A stretch of DNA of 64,000 nt, from positions 25,319 to 89,318 of the forward strand of contig JASEHH010000003.1 of the NCBI GenBank assembly GCA_030017685.1, in the 5' to 3' direction. Below, piece after piece: positions 9,747 through 52,012 of this stretch (positions within the stretch are counted from its first letter, which is position 1; each line of letters begins with the position of its first letter). The notes beneath the pieces were generated by a model that was given only the letters and a program-made list of their open reading frames with translations, did no database searches and was not told the origin of the DNA. The translations under genes were made by a program, and so were the position numbers. Source of the stretch: Thermodesulfobacteriota bacterium (GTDB taxonomy: Bacteria > Desulfobacterota > BSN033 > UBA1163).

Positions 9747-9767
9747 TTTATGTTTCCTACCTTAAAA

Positions 9768-9881
9768 TGAAATGCCAAAATTCAAAGTTCAAATGTCAAA
9801 CCAAATCTAAGGCTCAAATACCAAAAGTCTTTTATTTCGGATTTTGACATTTATTTGGCATTTGAACTTTGACATTTGACA
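9768..9881. repeat. long imperfect palindrome (about 115 bp) in the hemE-pepA spacer
   Basis: aaatgccaaaattcaaagttcaaatgtcaaa ... tttgacatttatttggcatttgaactttgacatttgacatt. The arms are reverse complements of each other (aaatgccaaa/tttggcattt; caaagttcaaatgtcaaa/tttgacatttgaactttg). Confidence 0.45.
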
Positions 9882-11378
9882 TTATGGTTTGCTACTCCAA
9901 TCCCTCAGCATTTGGAGTAGCAACCTCACCCCAACCCCTGTTCCCCCTTTGGGAATATAGGGTCTTTCTTTTTCAATATGAGCTGGACCTGCAATATCCA
10001 GATGGACCCAGGGTGTCTTTTCAACAAACTTACTCAAAAAAATCCCTCCAATGATCGTCCCTGCAGCCCGGGTCCCAACATTTCTGAAATCCGCAGTATC
10101 ACTCTTAAGATAATCAAAGTATTCATCCCAGAGGGGCAACCGCCAAACCTTTTCTCCGCTTCTGGAGGCTTCCTCGATCTTTTTTAAGAGCGTGTCATCA
10201 TTTCCCATAATGCCGATCACATAATCTCCCAGGGCGATCACGCAAGCTCCGGTTAGGGTTGCCAGGTCGATGATAGCTTTTGGTTTATAACGAAGGCTGT
10301 AGGTCAGGGCATCTGCAAGGATGAGCCTTCCCTCTGCATCGGTGCTGATTACCTCAACGGTCTGACCTGAAAGGGTCTTCAACACATCACCCGGCTTATA
10401 GGCCTTTCCGCTCGGAAGATTTTCAGTTGCCGGAATAATCCCCACCAAATGAAGAGGAATCTGGAGCTGGGAAGCTGCCTGCAGGGTGGTCAAAACTGCC
10501 GCCGCCCCTGACATGTCGTCTTTCATCCTCTCCATATTTTCTGAAGGCTTAATCGAGATTCCACCACTGTCGAATGTGATTCCTTTCCCCACCAAAGCGA
10601 TGGTATCCAGCTTCTTCCCTTTATTATATTCCAGAACGATGAATTTCCCGGGTTCCTGGCTCCCTCGGGCCACAGCCGCAAAAGCTCCCATGCCCATGGC
10701 CTCTGCTTCGCTCACCTCCAACACCTGAATCTCCATGGAGTGATCTTTGGCAATCTGTCTGGCTTTTTCAACCAGCAACATGGGAGTGACCTGATTACTG
10801 GGTCCGTTGACCAGATTTCTTGCTGTGCAGACCGCATCTGAGATGATCGTCCCTTTCCTTGACCCCTCCCCAATGGATTGGATCTCTTTATCGGTCTCTC
10901 CGAGAAGGATCACTTCCTCAATCGTTTTGATCTTTCCCCTTTCAAGTGTCTTAAATTCATTGAACTGGTAAGTTCCAAGCAGAAGTCCTGTGACAAAAGA
11001 TTCAGTGAGCTCCTCCTCGAATAGACCTTTGAATGGTTTTATCTGAAACGCAAATTGTTTGATCCCCGAATCCCTTATAAACTGCCCGGCCTTCGAAGCC
11101 GCTCCTCTCCATTTCTCCAGATCGAACTCCTCTTTTTTGCCGAGACCTGTCAGCAAAACCCTTCTCGCAGGAATCGCCCCCTGGGTATGAATAAGCCGGC
11201 ATTGGAACAACTCCCCCTTGAAATCACCCTGGCTGATGAGTGTGGAGAGGTACCCCTTCCATTCCAGATCAACATTTTTGATTGGCCCCTCCAGGGGTTC
11301 TGGCGATTCAAAAGAAAAAAGAAGGAGAAGTTCGGAAGGATATTTCTCTGCTTTCCCTTGCTCAACCCGAATTTGCAT
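9882..11378 (-). CDS. pepA: leucyl aminopeptidase (M17 family)
   Basis: 498 aa containing the M17 signature NTDAEGRL (VISTDAEGRLILADALTY). Confidence 0.85.
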   Translation of the reverse strand: MQIRVEQGKAEKYPSELLLLFSFESPEPLEGPIKNVDLEWKGYLSTLISQGDFKGELFQCRLIHTQGAIPARRVLLTGLGKKEEFDLEKWRGAASKAGQFIRDSGIKQFAFQIKPFKGLFEEELTESFVTGLLLGTYQFNEFKTLERGKIKTIEEVILLGETDKEIQSIGEGSRKGTIISDAVCTARNLVNGPSNQVTPMLLVEKARQIAKDHSMEIQVLEVSEAEAMGMGAFAAVARGSQEPGKFIVLEYNKGKKLDTIALVGKGITFDSGGISIKPSENMERMKDDMSGAAAVLTTLQAASQLQIPLHLVGIIPATENLPSGKAYKPGDVLKTLSGQTVEVISTDAEGRLILADALTYSLRYKPKAIIDLATLTGACVIALGDYVIGIMGNDDTLLKKIEEASRSGEKVWRLPLWDEYFDYLKSDTADFRNVGTRAAGTIIGGIFLSKFVEKTPWVHLDIAGPAHIEKERPYIPKGGTGVGVRLLLQMLRDWSSKP

Positions 11379-11410: not shown

Positions 11411-11951
11411 ATTTAAATTCGAAGCACTAAATCCGAAATCGCTTAAACTCTAAACACTAAACTCTAAACCCTAAACAAATCCAAAAGCTAAAACTCAAAA
11501 AGTTATTTCGATTTCTCAACAATTGAACCGAATATCTTCGTGAGCTCTGTTGCTTCCTTGATCAAGTTCTGTTTTTCCATCATTTGCTCTTCTTTTGGTT
11601 CGGTTAACTCAAGCCAGTACCCACTCTCTTTTGCCTCTTTTCTTGATATCTTTATTCTCATTACAAAATCCTTTCTACTTAATGCTTCTTCGCCCTCAAT
11701 ATAGTTGGCCCCCACTGAGCCAGAAGCCTTGATAAGCTGTCTTGCGTCTTCTATATTGCTTAAAGTCTTTGGTAAATTCTTCACGTAGTTTCTTACCATT
11801 TTGGCAAATCTAAGCGTCCTGTCCCTTAAATCATACGGTTTTGAGTTTTGTGTTTTGGATATTTGAGCTTGTTTAGAGTTTAGGATTTCGAGTTTAGGGT
11901 TTAACATCTTCGTTTCATCCCGTCTTGGCGTGATTTCAATATTCGGATTTT
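11411..11951. repeat. approximately 540-bp repeat unit, copy 1 (near-identical to 50230..50767), carrying a four-helix-bundle gene
   Basis: Direct nucleotide comparison of 11411-11951 with 50230-50767 shows near identity (a few substitutions, one N/S difference in the encoded protein). This includes about 90 bp 3' and about 45 bp 5' of the ORF. The ends are built from ctaaa(c)-type repeats that are approximately inverted relative to each other. Confidence 0.8.
11503..11907 (-). CDS. four-helix-bundle protein (TIGR02436-like, the 23S rRNA intervening-sequence protein family)
   Basis: 134 aa translating to MLNPKLEILNSKQAQISKTQNSKPYDLRDRTLRFAKMVRNYVKNLPKTLSNIEDARQLIKASGSVGANYIEGEEALSRKDFVMRIKISRKEAKESGYWLEL. 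This is the typical four-helix-bundle pattern. A second copy lies at 50320..50724. Confidence 0.75.
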   Translation of the reverse strand: MLNPKLEILNSKQAQISKTQNSKPYDLRDRTLRFAKMVRNYVKNLPKTLSNIEDARQLIKASGSVGANYIEGEEALSRKDFVMRIKISRKEAKESGYWLELTEPKEEQMMEKQNLIKEATELTKIFGSIVEKSK

Positions 11952-11960
11952 CTCATTAAG

Positions 11961-13166
11961 CTAATCTCTTTCTTTCAGTTTCGATAGGGCAATGGAGCGA
12001 TTCTTCTCGACGGTAGAAAATTCCTTTACCTTTTTTGCCAAAGTGGGAGGCCATCCCCCCCGTTCAAGAATCCTTGCCAGCATCCAGGGGTTCAAATCAG
12101 AAACTTCCATCCACTTTCCGGCGTTCTTGATGAACTCATCCAATGCCTTTCGATTCGGATCTCCCTTCAAGGGATACTTCTCTTTCATCTCGGTCTTAAT
12201 TTTGGCTACATGGTCACTCCCGTAGATAGCCTCTAACTCCTCCCGTTGAGCATAAGCAAAGAGAGCTTCCTCCACTCTGGCCAGCTCTGCATCAATCTCT
12301 CCAATTAAAATCCCCTTCTTTTCTTTCAGTTCCACATATCGGTTGACCAGATTCACCCCTTCTTCCTGAAGATATTCATTCGGGGGAAGACTCTCCGCCA
12401 CAATCCGATGCCTCCGTTTTGGACAGAGACTCTGATAATCACACCAGCTACAGAGGGGGCTCTCTTGGGGAGAAAAATCCCTGTCTGACTCGATCTTCTT
12501 GATGAGTTCCATCGTCTCCTGCCGGAGTCGTTGAAGCTCCTCAGGAGTTCTCAGAGATTGAACCTCCACATCGAAGGCAAGATAGTGCCAGATCAATTTG
12601 ATTTCCTGTATATCTTTCCATTTTCCCTCCACCCCCATTTGATAGAAGGCCAGCTGTCGGTCTGATTGGACGTCTCCCTGGGTCGGGAGTCTACTGGAGG
12701 TTTTATAATCGTGAATCTCGAGGATAGAGTGGTCCGAGAGTGCAAGACGATCAATCACTCCCCTGATCCAGTACCCCTTTTCCTCTTCGAGGGGAAAATA
12801 GATGGTCTCTTCAAGGCCCAATGTCCTTCCCTGGTCAAAGGGATAATAACGTTTGTAATAGTCTGTGATGCATTTTTCTCCCAGACGGCGATAGTCTTCC
12901 GCATGGTATTCCTTTCTGATGATCTGAACCGACTCACTCCAGTTCTTCTCCCAGCATTGATGATAAAAGGCAAGAAGTTCTTCGAGGGTATTGAGTTTGG
13001 TCATCTTCAGGTCACGGTAGAGCTTTTCCAGGGCATCGTGAACCCTCGAACCCATGAAAGCCTCAATCCCTTCCGTATCCATCTTAATTTTCTGGATGTA
13101 GTGAAGTCGATATTGATAGGGACAGGTTTGATAGGTGGAGAGCTGGGAATGGGAATACGCTGGCAT
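11961..13166 (-). CDS. PD-(D/E)XK nuclease superfamily protein, Cas4/RecB-like with Fe-S cysteine motif
   Basis: 401 aa. The N-terminal SQLSTYQTCPYQYRLHYI plus the C-proximal CSWCDYQSLC give the 1+3 cysteine pattern of Cas4/AddB-type nuclease domains. The core contains D/E..K-like residues. Confidence 0.65.
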   Translation of the reverse strand: MPAYSHSQLSTYQTCPYQYRLHYIQKIKMDTEGIEAFMGSRVHDALEKLYRDLKMTKLNTLEELLAFYHQCWEKNWSESVQIIRKEYHAEDYRRLGEKCITDYYKRYYPFDQGRTLGLEETIYFPLEEEKGYWIRGVIDRLALSDHSILEIHDYKTSSRLPTQGDVQSDRQLAFYQMGVEGKWKDIQEIKLIWHYLAFDVEVQSLRTPEELQRLRQETMELIKKIESDRDFSPQESPLCSWCDYQSLCPKRRHRIVAESLPPNEYLQEEGVNLVNRYVELKEKKGILIGEIDAELARVEEALFAYAQREELEAIYGSDHVAKIKTEMKEKYPLKGDPNRKALDEFIKNAGKWMEVSDLNPWMLARILERGGWPPTLAKKVKEFSTVEKNRSIALSKLKERD

Positions 13167-14380: not shown

Positions 14381-14536
14381 AAATTTGATGGTCTCGTAAA
14401 AAGTCCCAAAAGTGGTCATTGCGTGCGGAGCGAAGCTATCTCGTATCTCATAAGTGCTTGATTTTATGAAATTGCTTCATCGCTACGCTCCTCTCAATGA
14501 CATGTGGTTGGACTTTTTACGATTTCATCAAATTTA
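14381..14536. repeat. approximately 155-bp extended imperfect inverted repeat upstream of the peptide ABC operon
   Basis: The left arm aaatttgatggtctcgtaaaaagtcccaaaagtggtcattg and the right arm caatgacatgtggttggactttttacgatttcatcaaattt are near reverse complements. The centre (ggagcgaagc...gcttcatcgctacgctcc) is also self-complementary. Confidence 0.45.
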
Positions 14537-26029: not shown

Positions 26030-26105
26030 ACGATGAACCACATTTATTTTTCATCGTTCATCGTTCATTGTTCATGGTTCATCGTTTATCGTTCATCATT
26101 CATCG
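26030..26105. repeat. heptanucleotide tandem repeat (TCGTTCA, about 9 copies) between convergent genes
   Basis: catcgttcatcgttcattgttcatggttcatcgtttatcgttcatcattcatcgtcat. Confidence 0.7.
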
Positions 26106-26582
26106 TCATATTGTAATGATTTCCCCTTCGATCTTTTCTCCGATGTTTAGAATTCCAAGGGTGGCACCATGCCAGAAAGAGCGAGTAGGAGAGCCGGGGT
26201 TGAAAAAAAAGCTGTTCTTCACCCGGTGATTGGCAGGAGCATGGGTATGGCCATAGATGATCGCATCCACCTCATCAAATTCGTCTCTGATCCTTGACTC
26301 GATTCCGAAGGGCGCCCCGCCTCCGTGAATCAAACCTATTCGAAATCCCCCTAATTCAATGACCTGTTTCTGCGGAAAGACCTTCCGGATTTCATAAGGG
26401 TCCATATTCCCGCAAACAGCAATCAACTCTTTGATTCCAGAAAGGTATTCTGCAACAGACCAACTTACAAAGTCCCCTGCATGAACAATCTTCTCCACAT
26501 CCCCGAAATGGAATTCCATCATCTTTTTGAATTCAGAATTTGGTTCCCTTAAATGCGTATCGGAAAGGACACCAATCTTCAT
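26106..26582 (-). CDS. metallophosphoesterase, YfcE/MJ0936-like
   Basis: Translation shows MKIGVLSDTHL, GDFV, GNMD and GHTH motifs of calcineurin-like phosphoesterases. The start at 26582 is the internal Met (the track ORF begins at 26645). Confidence 0.7.
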   Translation of the reverse strand: MKIGVLSDTHLREPNSEFKKMMEFHFGDVEKIVHAGDFVSWSVAEYLSGIKELIAVCGNMDPYEIRKVFPQKQVIELGGFRIGLIHGGGAPFGIESRIRDEFDEVDAIIYGHTHAPANHRVKNSFFFNPGSPTRSFWHGATLGILNIGEKIEGEIITI

Positions 26583-36214: not shown

Positions 36215-36241
36215 AAAGGTTGGGTTGTTGATTTATTGAAT

Positions 36242-36280
36242 AAAAAAGGGTGAGAGAAATCTTCTCTCACCCTTTTTTAT
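36242..36280. terminator. bidirectional Rho-independent terminator between convergent genes
   Basis: aaaaa-gggtgagagaa-atc-ttctctcaccc-ttttttat. A perfect 12-bp stem with A/T tracts on both sides. Confidence 0.6.
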
Positions 36281-37457
36281 TCAGCGAAGTCACGCCCAGG
36301 CAGAGGACAAATCCGATCAACGAGACGAAAAGGGTCAACTGAAAAGAACCTGTCAAATCTCTCAGATATCCTCCGAGAATGGTCCCTAAAAACTGTCCGA
36401 TGCCATGGACCAAGGTTACCCAGCCATAGAGGGTCGCACTTTTCTCCGTCTCCTCATCACCCACGCATGCCGCAATCACTGTAACCGTTCCTAAAAAGGT
36501 CGCCCCAAAAAGAAAAGCTGAGAGGCCAAGAAGGAAGGTCTGATGAAACAGCAGGGGGATCAATACAGATAAGGAAATCAAGCCATTGTTCCAGACCAAG
36601 GCTTCCCTTCTGCCTATGCGGTCTGAAAGGAATCCCCATATCCATCCGCTCACCACGCACATCCAGCCGAAAATCGACCAGATCGCTCCCGCAACTCCCT
36701 CTGTCAGTCGGATCTCTTCGACGAGAAAAGCAACAAAATAGGTGACATAGATGTTGTAGGCCAATCCGAAAATAAAATAGATGAGAAAGATGGCCCGAAG
36801 GGTCAGACCGCTACCTTTGACCCTGTCTGGCCCTAGAGCGGTCCTTTGGTCGCCCTGGAGCAAAGGGGGGGCCTTGTGGGATGGTTTCTCCTTTAAAAGA
36901 AGGAATGAAATAAGCCCGACCAGAAGGGTAAGCAAAGCCATAAAAATCCAGCACTCCCTCCATGCCTCTCCGCCCAGAGTGGAGAGGAGATAGGGAAGCA
37001 GAAGGCCCGTGATGATGATTCCAAACCCTGTCCCTCCCGTGACAATCCCTAAGGCTCCACCCAATCTCTCTCTTTCAAACCATGTCATGGGCAGGGTGGT
37101 CATGGAAATATGAGCCCCTCCCCCAGCGCCTCCCATGGCAAAAGTGAAGAAGAGAAGGGGAATAAATTCTGACAACCTGCTGATAAAGAACATGGAGATT
37201 GTTCCGCATAGCATCGAGGTGATGACAATTCTTTTGGAACCGAACCGTGTCGCCAGAATTCCGCCAATCAAAGAAAAAAGGAGGTATCCCGCAAGGATGC
37301 CACCGCTCAGAAGCCCCATCTCGAAGTAGTTGAATCGAAGGGACTCCCTCATGCTGGGGAGCAGCATGGGATAGGCAAAACGGCCAAACCCCAGACCTGC
37401 CATCTTGACGAGAACTCCTACTCCGACAATGATCCAGCCATAGTAAACCGTTTTCAT
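36267..37457 (-). CDS. MFS transporter
   Basis: 396 aa with 12 predicted TM segments and MFS-like loop motifs. Confidence 0.7.
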   Translation of the reverse strand: MKTVYYGWIIVGVGVLVKMAGLGFGRFAYPMLLPSMRESLRFNYFEMGLLSGGILAGYLLFSLIGGILATRFGSKRIVITSMLCGTISMFFISRLSEFIPLLFFTFAMGGAGGGAHISMTTLPMTWFERERLGGALGIVTGGTGFGIIITGLLLPYLLSTLGGEAWRECWIFMALLTLLVGLISFLLLKEKPSHKAPPLLQGDQRTALGPDRVKGSGLTLRAIFLIYFIFGLAYNIYVTYFVAFLVEEIRLTEGVAGAIWSIFGWMCVVSGWIWGFLSDRIGRREALVWNNGLISLSVLIPLLFHQTFLLGLSAFLFGATFLGTVTVIAACVGDEETEKSATLYGWVTLVHGIGQFLGTILGGYLRDLTGSFQLTLFVSLIGFVLCLGVTSLNKKG

Positions 37458-42346: not shown

Positions 42347-42831
42347 TTACAGCCTCCTCTGAGATGGAAAGTCGAATGTGGAACGCGGAGGGTGGTTTTT
42401 AAAAAATCTGCTTCTACTTTCCACATTCCACTTTCCACACTCTGATGTTATAGATACCAAAATTTCCATGCCCAAACAAGAAGTTTTTAGAAGGAAGCAT
42501 CTCCAATATCGTGATGACAGAATGGACTCCAGAGGGGCAGGTAGGCCAGACTCCGAAATCTTTAGGATTGCGGATCATTAGAGGTTTAAGGGAAACTTTC
42601 GTAGTCAATGGAAATGAGGTTTTTATTGGTCTTGGAGCATCTTGAGTCAATCCTTAAGCGGTGCCGCCCTAAATCTTTCCCGCCTGCCCCTCTGGATTTG
42701 GCATTCCCATGGATTTCTATCACTGGAAAAGAGATGCTTACTTTTAGAAAAACACAATGGTATTTTGGACGAAAAAGAGTTAAAATTGTTGTTATGTTTA
42801 ATGGGGGGAAGAGATAAATCATGGAGGTGAA

Positions 42832-45883: not shown

Positions 45884-46155
45884 CGTTATCCTCCTTTTAA
45901 AAATTTCGTTTAACGTAACCCCTCAGTTAAAGAGAGAAAAAAGGGTCGGGAGGTTCTTCTGGAAAAACCTTGAAGCGAAACCTCTATCCGTTAAACTGCT
46001 TAGGTTCGTTTCCTAAAACCACCATGCAAAGGACAGGATGGCTGGTTCGCATAACCTCTATGATCGCTTTTCAAGGTTTTGGAAGGAGAACCTTCCGACC
46101 CTTTCTGGTCAAGTACCTCCCATAAGCGAGACATTACCGCCTGACCTACCACTTT

Positions 46156-46740: not shown

Positions 46741-46841
46741 CCCCCTATCTCCCTCTGACCGTGTCCCATAAGTCATCTGCTGGACACAGGGAGACGGGGT
46801 ATAATTGGTTCAATTGAGGCTCCAACATAACATATTTGTGT

Positions 46842-46915
46842 GTCATTCCCGTGAAAACGGGAATCCAGGACCAACAGGAAATACCTGGATTCCTGCTTCC
46901 GCAGGAATGACAAAC
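46842..46915. repeat. REP/MITE-like nested palindromic element (about 74 bp)
   Basis: gtcattcccgtgaaaacgggaatccaggaccaacaggaaatacctggattcctgcttccgcaggaatgacaaac. Three internal hairpins (attcccg/cgggaat, ccagg/cctgg, ttcctgc/gcaggaa) sit inside the outer gtcattcc/ggaatgac arms. Confidence 0.55.
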
Positions 46916-47830: not shown

Positions 47831-47926
47831 CTGTTCACATAAGCCGTTCGTGCTGAGCTTGTCGAAGCATGAACGGCTTCAATTACCCACCCTTCGACAG
47901 GCTCAGGGTGAACGGTTTTTCCTTAA
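47831..47926. repeat. structured palindromic element with two related hairpins
   Basis: gccgttcgtgc-tgagcttgtcgaa-gcatgaacggc followed by cttcgacaggctcag (the reverse complement of the first loop) and ggtgaacgg. Confidence 0.4.
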
Positions 47927-50167: not shown

Positions 50168-50229
50168 CTCTTAAATGAATCTCCAACACTCTCCTGTTGA
50201 TTTCCGAATCAACCGCTATCCTAAAAGGT

Positions 50230-50767
50230 TTAAATCCGAAGCACGAAATCCGAAACCGCTTAAACTCTAAACACTAAACTCTAAACCCTAAATAAATCCA
50301 AAAGCTAAAACTCAAAAAGTTATTTCGACTTCTCAACAATTGAACCGAATATCTTCGTAAGCTCTGTTGCTTCCTTGATCAAACTCTGTTTTTCCATCAT
50401 TTGCTCTTCTTTTGGTTCGGTTAATTCAAGCCAGTACCCACTCTCTTTTGCCTCTTTTCTTGATATCTTTATTCTCATTACAAAATCCTTTCTACTTAAT
50501 GCTTCTTCGCCCTCAATATAGTTGGCCCCCACTGAGCCAGAAGCCTTGATAAGCTGTCTTGCGTCTTCTATATTGCTTAAAGTCTTTGGTAAATTCTTCA
50601 CGTAGTTTCTTACCATTTTGGCAAATCTAAGCGTCCTGTCCCTTAAATCATACGGTTTTGAGTTTTGTGTTTTGGATATTTGAGCTTGTTTAGAGTTTAG
50701 GATTTCGAGTTTAGGGTTTAACATCTTCGTTTCATCCCGTCCTGGCGTGATTTCAATATTCGGATTT
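50230..50767. repeat. approximately 540-bp repeat unit, copy 2 (near-identical to 11411..11951), inserted between rfbB and rfbD
   Basis: Nucleotide-level near identity with copy 1 across the ORF and both flanks. Confidence 0.8.
50320..50724 (-). CDS. four-helix-bundle protein (TIGR02436-like), second copy
   Basis: 134 aa. Identical to the 11503..11907 product except for one residue (N/S). Confidence 0.75.
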   Translation of the reverse strand: MLNPKLEILNSKQAQISKTQNSKPYDLRDRTLRFAKMVRNYVKNLPKTLSNIEDARQLIKASGSVGANYIEGEEALSRKDFVMRIKISRKEAKESGYWLELTEPKEEQMMEKQSLIKEATELTKIFGSIVEKSK

Positions 50768-50787
50768 CGTATTGTTGAATCTTCTCG

Positions 50788-51845: not shown

Positions 51846-51992
51846 TTAAATCCGAAATCCGAATATCGGGCGAAGCTTCCCGAAGGGATCAATCCGAAAC
51901 AAATCCAAAATCCAAATGACTCAATTTTCAAAACGTTACATTAATTTCTGTTTTATGTGTGATTGGAATCTTTTTCGGATTTCGGATTTCGT
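51846..51992. repeat. long-range inverted repeat in the rfbC-rfbB spacer
   Basis: ttaaatccgaaatccgaa (51846-51863) and ttcggatttcggatttcg (51975-51992) are reverse complements. An internal hairpin cgggcgaagcttcccg is also present. Confidence 0.45.
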
Positions 51993-52012
51993 GCTTCGAA
52001 TTTCCGATTTTG

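Follow-up and report, generated by a model that had tools for sequence, protein, structure and literature searches.

Large numbers of genes that encode small four-helix-bundle proteins of one family carry the annotation "four helix bundle protein" or "23S rRNA intervening sequence protein". They are often multi-copy and are known from stem-bordered intervening sequences (IVSs) of ribosomal RNA (rRNA) genes, which have long been proposed to be mobile; whether IVSs that carry such genes move has been debated since the early 1990s. The IVS of Coxiella is bordered by a 28-bp stem, carries a gene of this family, and is excised by RNase III (PMC4990558). Earlier work also placed genes of the family in gaps between cas genes (PMC3936711) and within insertions in the rRNA of bacteria of the Candidate Phyla Radiation (CPR; PMC11270868), and the family itself (PF05635) has been described as resembling Avd, an accessory protein of diversity-generating retroelements (DGRs; PMC10053308). 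Here, we describe two near-identical copies of an IVS-like cassette that carries such a gene between protein-coding genes, framed by inverted arms of tandem 7-nt repeats (heptamers), in a 64-kb stretch of a Thermodesulfobacteriota contig (JASEHH010000003.1; hereafter, the window), together with its relatives in other genomes.

Other small repeats of bacterial genomes are also pertinent to this locus. The Correia elements of Neisseria (also called Neisseria miniature insertion sequences, NEMIS), enterobacterial repetitive intergenic consensus (ERIC) sequences, and repetitive extragenic palindromic (REP) sequences with their bacterial interspersed mosaic elements (BIME) are short palindromic elements that lie in the spacers of transcription units and are co-transcribed with them. 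They occur in many copies per genome and their presence varies among strains, and the hairpin of the Correia element is cut by RNase III. The short tandemly repeated repetitive (STRR) sequences of cyanobacteria are intergenic tandem 7-nt repeats found in either orientation. Finally, the RNA on which Avd works has a template with pairing segments on either side.

Results

A repeat search followed by MAFFT and global alignment identified a single long repeat family in the window, consisting of two direct repeats of ~540 nt at 11412-11951 (copy A) and 50229-50770 (copy B), both read from the minus strand. The copies differ by 10 substitutions and an ambiguous 2-nt difference at one end (97.8% identity by global alignment), as anticipated by the original prediction, which had reported near-identical ~540-bp direct repeats from the letters alone. 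Each unit contains a 134-aa open reading frame (ORF) on the minus strand (11503-11907 in A, 50320-50724 in B), and the encoded proteins indeed differ by a single residue (N114S). Identity between the copies extends outside the ORF, by 91 nt on the stop-codon side and 44 nt on the start-codon side, in keeping with the ~90 and ~45 bp first estimated. Differences between the copies are unevenly spread, with a 316-nt run (11609-11924) entirely free of them (P ~4e-4 for 10-12 randomly placed differences).

The protein matched PF05635 (23S_rRNA_IVP; E 7.6e-13, 49 bits against a curated cut-off of 33.8) and TIGR02436 (four helix bundle protein; E 1.8e-18, 66.7 bits against a curated cut-off of 24). 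Residues 23-133 showed homology to PDB 2RLD, an entry with five chains (E 1.7e-14 with the single sequence and 1.8e-17 with a profile), and homology to the family and to 2RLD suggests a four-helix-bundle fold for the window protein. No defence-system profile in PADLOC matched the protein, and PHROGs likewise returned nothing useful. A scan with Rfam gave no match in the window at gathering thresholds, including none to rRNA, and none in unit A at E-values up to 1.

In the direction of transcription, copy A is preceded by a PD-(D/E)XK/Cas4-like nuclease gene and followed by pepA (site A), while copy B is preceded by rmlB and followed by rmlD (site B); all of these genes lie on the same strand, and both contexts are those originally described. 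Repeats of this kind could in principle mediate deletion of the 38.8-kb segment between them; inversion, which had been suggested alongside deletion, does not apply because the repeats are direct. It is scarcely credible that the pair arose as an assembly artefact, i.e., from a repeat misplaced twice in a metagenome-assembled contig. The window probably does come from an uncultured organism, its best matches being metagenome-assembled genomes (MAGs) and metagenome contigs, but each copy fits precisely into an intergenic spacer whose neighbouring genes are intact and syntenic, the two differ at 10 positions, and the cassette type at site A recurs there in independent assemblies.

The ends of both units are inverted repeats of tandem 7-nt units. 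The arms of copy A at 11443-11485 and 11862-11904 (43 nt) are 79% complementary, with shifted alternative pairings, and beyond them lies an outermost inverted pair, AAATCCGAA (11429-11437) and TTCGGATTT (11942-11950). A tandem CTAAACN pattern (CTAAACNCTAAAC) gave 13 matches against 0.22 expected by chance. The units are composite, in that outer CGAAAT-type arms enclose inner CTAAAC-type arms, the latter matching 5' and 3' arm profile hidden Markov models (HMMs) built on 75 non-window cassettes. Read in the sense (minus) direction, copy A consists of a 5' outer segment with the terminal AAATCCGAA and the start codon used (11908-11951), a 5' inner arm of CTAAAC-type heptamers that lies within codons 2-23 of the ORF (11839-11904; E 4.7e-17), the remainder of the gene, a 3' inner arm that directly follows the stop codon and has GTTTAG-type heptamers in sense (11443-11502), and a 3' outer arm that reads ATTTCGGATTTAGTGCTTCGAATTTAAA in sense (11412-11442). 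The corresponding parts of copy B, likewise on the minus strand, are at 50725-50770 (5' outer), 50656-50721 (5' inner), 50260-50319 (3' inner), and 50229-50259 (3' outer). In a predicted fold of the whole unit, the arms are paired (-125 kcal/mol). The repeat-built ends, which had been likened to terminal inverted repeats (TIRs), are real, and moreover proved to be conserved and covarying family-wide rather than specific to this genome.

The 5' arm also bears on the N-terminus of the protein. Codon 16 of the window ORF (11860-11862 in copy A) corresponds to the position of the family's usual ATG and reads ATA in both copies; the ORF begins instead at an upstream in-frame ATG. In a relative (L001), the usual ATG is intact and a TAA falls within the matching upstream stretch. 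Because the usual ATG has been lost, the low-complexity N-terminus of the window protein (LNPKLEILNSKQAQ), already ascribed to the 5' end of the unit in the original prediction, is translated 5'-arm sequence, and its counterpart in most relatives would be 5' untranslated region.

Relatives of the cassette are numerous. Scans yielded 209 in species-representative genomes and at least 389 in metagenome contigs, and the best 80 loci of each (~160 in total) were analyzed. Their proteins are 55-96% identical to the window protein and, by record titles, come from Thermodesulfobacteriota/Deltaproteobacteria, Planctomycetota, Omnitrophota, several CPR lineages, Verrucomicrobiota, Bacteroidota, Elusimicrobiota, Nitrospirota, WOR-3, KSB1, and one archaeal MAG (Methanophagales). 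A central core, GSVGANYIEANEALSKKDFVMRIKICRKEAKES, is nearly invariant across these proteins. The family is abundant in Bacteroides, cyanobacteria, and Planctomycetes. Anatomy was read from the flanks of every genome-scan locus and of both window copies, and in most of the ~160 loci the gene is framed by complementary heptamer arms of 55-70 nt. Heptamers of the 5' arm include AAATCCG, AAATTCG, AAGCACG, AATATCG, or CTAAA-type equivalents, and this arm ends in AAACAAATTCAA-ATG-ACCAAAA...CAAAAYTCAAAAC, covering the usual start codon. The 3' arm begins at the stop codon (e.g., TGA-GGTTTTGAGCATTTGGTATTTGAATTTTGATATTGTTTCGGATTTCGATATTCGAATTTCGGATTT), and its reverse complement corresponds to the 5' arm together with about the first 12 codons. 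Elements are typically 460-540 nt long, many with the consistent termini (T)AAATCC...GGATTT(A). When aligned with tolerance for heptamer-sized gaps, the arms paired over a median of ~50 matched positions with 89% identity in aligned columns, and 61 of 78 loci had at least 40 matched positions.

The two arms of a locus also tend to be of the same type. The dominant arm unit is CTAAA/TTTAG in 69 loci, CGAAA/TTTCG in 43, and CCAAA/TTTGG in 1, and the 5' and 3' arms are concordant in 113 of 123 classifiable loci and discordant in 10 (chi-square p ~1e-23). Part of this concordance is shared ancestry. At the leuC-leuD site of Pirellulales, however, where coding sequences (CDSs) and flanks are equally diverged (73-79% identity), two loci (L012 and L046) have CGAAA in every unit of both arms while two others (L013 and L014) have CTAAA, and we take this to be a true concerted switch of heptamer type. 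Ranking each locus' own 3' arm against all others by strict local alignment gave just a weak covariation signal, since many loci share a heptamer type and heptamer-sized indels break the alignment.

Placement of the cassettes is similarly regular. Of 80 loci, 76 have a nearest upstream ORF that is co-directional with the cassette gene; the closest ORF downstream is so oriented in 62 of 74, and both neighbours are in 58 of 72. The stop codon of the upstream gene lies a median of 47 nt before the usual ATG; therefore, the 5' arm begins at or just after this stop codon, and the first TAAATCC unit of many loci includes the TAA stop. On the other side, 75-100 nt typically separate the cassette stop from the start of the downstream gene, which lies just beyond the 3' arm. 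Neither promoter-like nor terminator-like sites were present on the sense strand of the two window copies, and, judging by its position, the cassette appears to rely on transcripts of the host operon that read through it. The host operons (rml, trp, leu, pepA) are functionally unrelated. In a WOR-3 MAG (L043; 9896-9982 and 10001-10375), the cassette begins ~20 nt or less after the end of a tRNA gene.

Filled and empty forms of both sites were found among relatives. Contigs related at site B encode RmlD homologues with 97%, 91%, and 90% protein identity, share lptD-rmlA-rmlC-rmlB-rmlD-ugd synteny, and have flanking genes 92-97% identical to the window at the nucleotide level. The rmlB-rmlD spacer, which is 620 nt long in the window, measures 45 nt and is without an element in one of them (L164). 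In another (L165), it is 207 nt long and holds an ORF-less CGAAA-type hairpin, whose 3' arm and downstream flank align to the 3' outer arm and downstream flank of copy B. The two closest relatives at site B (L161 and L162) have a 264-nt spacer with an ORF-less CCAAA-type hairpin, and a more distant deltaproteobacterial MAG (L023) has another ORF-less heptamer hairpin in the same spacer.

At site A, contigs with nuclease homologues of 98%, 94%, and 92% identity (nucleotide identity to the window of 90-97% in the nuclease gene and 78-90% in pepA) have spacers of 152, 254, and 210 nt that lack the four-helix-bundle gene. The spacer of one (L166) contains a TGGAAT-type heptamer hairpin, that of another (L167) an unrelated GGGAATCC-type repeat, and that of a third (L169) an ORF-less CGAAA-type hairpin. 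A comparison of syntenic loci in relatives, which the original prediction had proposed as the means of demonstrating mobility, therefore found the gene absent at both sites in the nearest relatives. Four metagenome contigs with flanks of 72-77% nucleotide identity (L090, L094, L097, and L091) do carry a CTAAAC-type cassette exactly at site A. These cassettes are without the outer segments common to copies A and B, with L091 keeping one 5' AAATCCG unit. Since these more distant relatives carry the same cassette type there, the history of site A is in part one of hot-spot re-use, and not of one single new insertion.

Divergence of the cassettes was compared with that of their surroundings. Copies A and B are separated by ~0.05 synonymous substitutions per site (dS). 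The site A cassette of the window and those of L090, L094, L097, and L091 differ by a proportion of synonymous differences (pS) of 0.25-0.46 (dS 0.31-0.71), while pepA, hemE, and the nuclease gene of the same contigs have reached pS 0.68-0.79, i.e., saturation. Cassettes whose proteins are at least 79% identical to that of the window number 34 and are spread over ~13 different contexts; the rmlB-rmlD context is unique among them. It is very improbable that A and B are ancient paralogues at fixed positions that were homogenized by gene conversion and never moved. Such a history would account for the cassettes of the same type at site A in the four distant contigs and for the uneven A/B differences, as conversion tracts leave. 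However, relatives with 90-97% identical flanks lack the gene at A or B, which contradicts this history for site B, the site B context is not shared by any other of the 34 close cassettes, and dS of the site A cassette is far below that of its flanks.

Cassettes have also been replaced. At an orthologous locus of L001 and L063, the flanks are 80-81% identical, with longer near-identical stretches beside the cassette; L001 has a CTAAA cassette of the window type, with a protein 90% identical to that of the window, and L063 has a CGAAA cassette (64%). On the 3' side, the flank is shared again from the outermost heptamers, AATTTCGGATTTCC. At a trpF-trpB site (L011 and L021), the flanks are 77-84% identical and the CDSs 94%. 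Cassettes at shared sites are thus sometimes far less and sometimes more diverged than their flanks. Taken together, these loci show gain, loss, replacement, and lineage-to-lineage exchange of cassettes, with repeated use of the same spacers. The preference for recent copying or mobility over old paralogy, which had been based on near-identity of the two units, is upheld by the dS of ~0.05, the absence of the gene in near relatives, the variety of contexts, and cassette replacement. No transfer vector was identified; plasmid and phage collections hold only relatives of <41% identity.

With dN/dS values of 0.08-0.24, the four-helix-bundle protein is evidently under purifying selection. Strong selection of this kind, together with very high protein conservation across phyla, strict placement in operon spacers, and long persistence at one site with divergence equal to that of the flanks (e.g., leuC-leuD in Pirellulales), would also be expected of a module that benefits the host, in which the arms serve as intercistronic mRNA processing or stability elements, the protein is an RNA-binding factor acting on them, and the near-identity of A and B reflects gene conversion of functional paralogues. 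We consider such a module unlikely, as the nearest relatives do without the gene at both sites and their operons are unchanged, related genomes show the same spacer in five different states, the age of a cassette may depart from that of its flanks in either direction, and the host operons have no function in common.

Apart from the arms of copies A and B, the arm profiles matched the window in just two places. The first, an ORF-less relative of the cassette at 51846-52010 (minus strand), occupies the rmlC-rmlB spacer and is a CGAAAT-type hairpin of AAATCCG-type heptamers on the sense strand of the operon. Its 3' arm (51944-51846; E 5.6e-9) comes almost directly after its 5' arm (52010-51958; E 1.6e-5), and by blastn these arms match cassette arms in four loci (L063, L072, L057, and L086). 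The second, at 9767-9895 in the pepA-hemE spacer, is a possible ORF-less heptamer hairpin of AAATGTC/AAATGCC type with a marginal match (E ~0.05). ORF-less hairpins of relatives keep the start-codon context and continue directly into the 3' arm (L165: ...CAAATGACAGAAACTAAAAATAAGTTTGGAACATTT...), and we read them as cassettes that lost the ORF; the reverse direction, with hairpins first and the ORF added later, is also conceivable.

Spacers in this and related genomes hold a variety of other repeats. The rmlC-rmlB spacer has a CGAAA hairpin in the window and L165, an AAATGTC-type hairpin in L161 (2586-2719), and, in L164 (2852-2938), an unrelated AGAGCAT-rich repeat that resembles the sequence upstream of the cassettes in L001 and L063. 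Eight tandem copies of TTCATCG lie between convergent window ORFs at 26040-26106, with one complementary copy before them (GAACGATGAAC), and a TGGAAAG/CTTTCCA-like heptamer hairpin with almost no loop lies in a divergent intergenic region at 42365-42437. The arrays at 26050-26106 and 42365-42437 were considered as members of the family and rejected, as neither matched the arm profiles. A TGGAAT/ATTCCA-type hairpin like that at 42365-42437 fills the spacer between the Cas4-like nuclease gene and pepA in the closest relative (L166:1753-1904). A separate repeat family with the core GTCATTCCCGTGAAAACGGGAATCC forms hairpins at 46838-46915 of the window, at L167:3707-3960, and in the 3' flank of L055, and in L167 this repeat sits at the site of the window's cassette A. 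Further long intergenic inverted repeats, with arms of 22-41 nt, occur at 14381-14535, 45940-46104, 47841-47918, and 36237-36283 of the window, and one of them is a perfect 22-nt palindrome. The source genome is unusually rich in several kinds of intergenic hairpin.

Additional genes and gene remnants were seen near some cassettes. Between the stop codon and the 3' arm, five loci (L015, L056, L065, L068, and L071) contain either another 5' arm that retains a start-codon remnant or a truncated further copy of the gene, and these extras look like remnants of tandem or nested cassettes. Six others (L002, L022, L024, L037, L066, and L079) encode another, distantly related four-helix-bundle protein (34-44% identical to that of the window) less than 10 kb away; therefore, several subfamilies coexist in one genome.

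The Cas4-like neighbour of copy A (11961-13166) is a 401-aa PD-(D/E)XK nuclease (PF12705; E 1.3e-34) that matches Cas4 models weakly, falling below the NCBIfam cas4 cut-off (39 vs. 65 bits) and matching PADLOC Cas4 at E 8e-12. It is syntenic with pepA and hemE in many Thermodesulfobacteriota contigs, where no adjoining cas genes were called. Cas genes were likewise not noted among the ORFs listed for the neighbourhood, in which no search for CRISPR arrays was made. The nuclease is probably a housekeeping RecB-family enzyme outside any CRISPR system.

Discussion

In its distribution, the unit behaves like a mobile element; what follows on its movement and on the role of its protein is our reading of the sequences. 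We favour the explanation that it is a promoterless, hairpin-framed cassette that was recently copied into hairpin-holding spacers and is expressed by read-through in the manner of an IVS, and we assign this explanation as a whole a probability of roughly 0.6. The window copies are nested. Their inner CTAAAC arms and gene resemble the site A cassettes of distant relatives, their outer CGAAAT-type segments resemble the ORF-less hairpins resident at site A in L169 and at site B in L165, and composite forms with similar outer arms occur elsewhere (L083, L103, and L001). A composite cassette may thus have been copied, as recently as the low dS implies, into two spacers in which hairpins of the same superfamily were already resident. 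Since identity between A and B ends at the outermost heptamers, the most likely route would be recombination or gene conversion guided by the shared heptamer arms, and the 316-nt run without differences suggests a later exchange (conversion) between the two copies. It is also possible that a transposase acted in trans.

Once in place, the cassette would be transcribed by read-through within its host operon. By analogy with ORF-bearing rRNA IVSs, the arms may then pair in the RNA, which would bring together the host sequences on either side and bury the position of the family's usual start codon (ATA in the window copies, which use an ATG situated at the arm's outer end). Paired arms would also present a double-stranded substrate of the kind that RNase III cuts. 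In this manner, the insertion could be tolerated and expression of the protein limited. The protein itself, a predicted oligomer that likely binds nucleic acid, may serve maintenance or spread of the element.

Several observations weigh against this explanation. The cassette does not encode a recombinase or a transposase. A target-site duplication is not evident and none is shared at the A or B junctions, where the repeat arms blur the ends. Folding of the unit beats that of shuffled sequences modestly and to a similar extent on both strands (z -2.5 on the sense strand and -2.3 on the opposite strand). Mismatches in the arms comprise 82 G-U in sense, 104 A-C, and 258 transversions; G-U was not above A-C with either strict or gap-tolerant alignment, so that an RNA-specific signature was not found. 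Given the lack of a G-U excess, complementarity could be maintained at the DNA level, and the sequence data appear to favour neither RNA-level nor DNA-level upkeep of arm symmetry. Among the 10 loci without a close co-directional upstream ORF that were scanned, none was embedded in rRNA and only tRNAs and a riboswitch were detected. The connection to 23S rRNA made in the original prediction consequently stands for protein family and architecture, and not for location of copies in rRNA. The wide phyletic spread is partly inferred from MAGs, in which binning errors are possible. Lastly, the IVS protein of Coxiella has been reported as probably not made in vivo (PMC4990558).

The symmetry of the arms could also be that of a non-autonomous DNA transposon resembling a miniature inverted-repeat transposable element (MITE), with the arms as TIRs for a transposase encoded elsewhere, the gene as cargo or accessory, and the ORF-less hairpins as deletion derivatives. 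We regard this as possible, if rather doubtful. Such a transposon would explain the consistent (T)AAATCC...GGATTT(A) termini of many loci, the existence of ORF-less derivatives, the many genomic contexts, and the re-use of sites as hot spots, and the lack of a strand-specific G-U signal in the arms is as DNA-level symmetry predicts. However, no target-site duplication was recognised, and no transposase is found in or beside any cassette, the neighbours being housekeeping operon genes. Moreover, the 95% co-orientation with the upstream gene would not be expected of DNA transposition alone and would need extra selection for read-through expression, and arm length, heptamer number, and heptamer type all vary widely, which is unusual for transposase binding sites.

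A more far-reaching reading is also conceivable, albeit tentatively and with low odds of being correct. Protein and heptamer arms might together form a self-contained kind of mobile element that invades the loops of existing hairpins, whether these lie in rRNA helices or between the genes of operons. In this reading, the protein would bind the duplex of its own arms and promote copying into other hairpins, possibly via an RNA intermediate with a reverse transcriptase supplied in trans, by analogy with Avd in DGR retrohoming. If true, such an element would explain both the origin of ORF-bearing rRNA IVSs and the role of thousands of stand-alone "four helix bundle protein" genes.

In the literature searched, we found no description of heptamer-built, covarying arms that lie over the start codon and abut the stop codon, of co-oriented placement in operon spacers across phyla, of ORF-less derivatives, or of filled, empty, and replaced sites in close relatives. 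Such sites, along with the defined anatomy of the cassette, make mobility and the role of the arms directly testable. For annotation, low-complexity N-termini encoded by arms and many intergenic heptamer hairpins belong to one element family. The cassettes also provide examples of operons that are split without visible disruption.

Comparison with known systems

Integron cassettes resemble the cassettes described here in being promoterless single ORFs that are co-oriented with a folded, imperfect inverted repeat and expressed by read-through. However, the inverted repeat is split around the ORF in our elements, rather than forming one attC at one end, and the cassettes are solitary in ordinary operon spacers, with no integrase, attI site, or array. 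STRRs share the 7-nt period, but their sequences differ and they have not been described as paired arms framing a conserved gene.

Like Avd, the window protein is a small, basic, four-helix-bundle protein, although a profile search of PDB sequences reached 2RLD only and not Avd. The cassette is not a DGR component because neither a reverse transcriptase nor a template repeat is adjacent: the neighbours are pepA, the PD-(D/E)XK nuclease gene, rmlB, and rmlD, and template/variable repeats, as found in DGRs, do not adjoin it.

The ORF-less heptamer hairpins look like members of the Correia/ERIC/REP class. They differ in having tandem-heptamer arms, no sequence relation to those repeats, and no Rfam match, and, where those repeats have a transposase gene or no gene at all, the full-length cassette has a conserved four-helix-bundle gene.

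The closest described systems are the 23S rRNA IVSs of Leptospira and Coxiella burnetii (PMC4990558). These too have a PF05635 ("S23p") gene in the loop of a stem-bordered element of ~430-760 nt, are carried inside a host transcription unit without a promoter of their own, and have long been suspected to be mobile, their patchy distribution suggesting horizontal transfer. In contrast, the window copies lie between protein-coding genes and not in helices 9, 25, or 45 of 23S rRNA, and their arms are 55-70 nt of 7-nt repeats rather than a unique 28-bp stem. In addition, the arm covers the usual start codon, and RNase III cutting, which has been shown for IVSs, is inferred for the cassette. Because a location in the 23S rRNA gene defines the rRNA IVS class and these copies lie elsewhere, we do not place the cassette in that class and instead file it as an intervening-sequence-like element outside rRNA.

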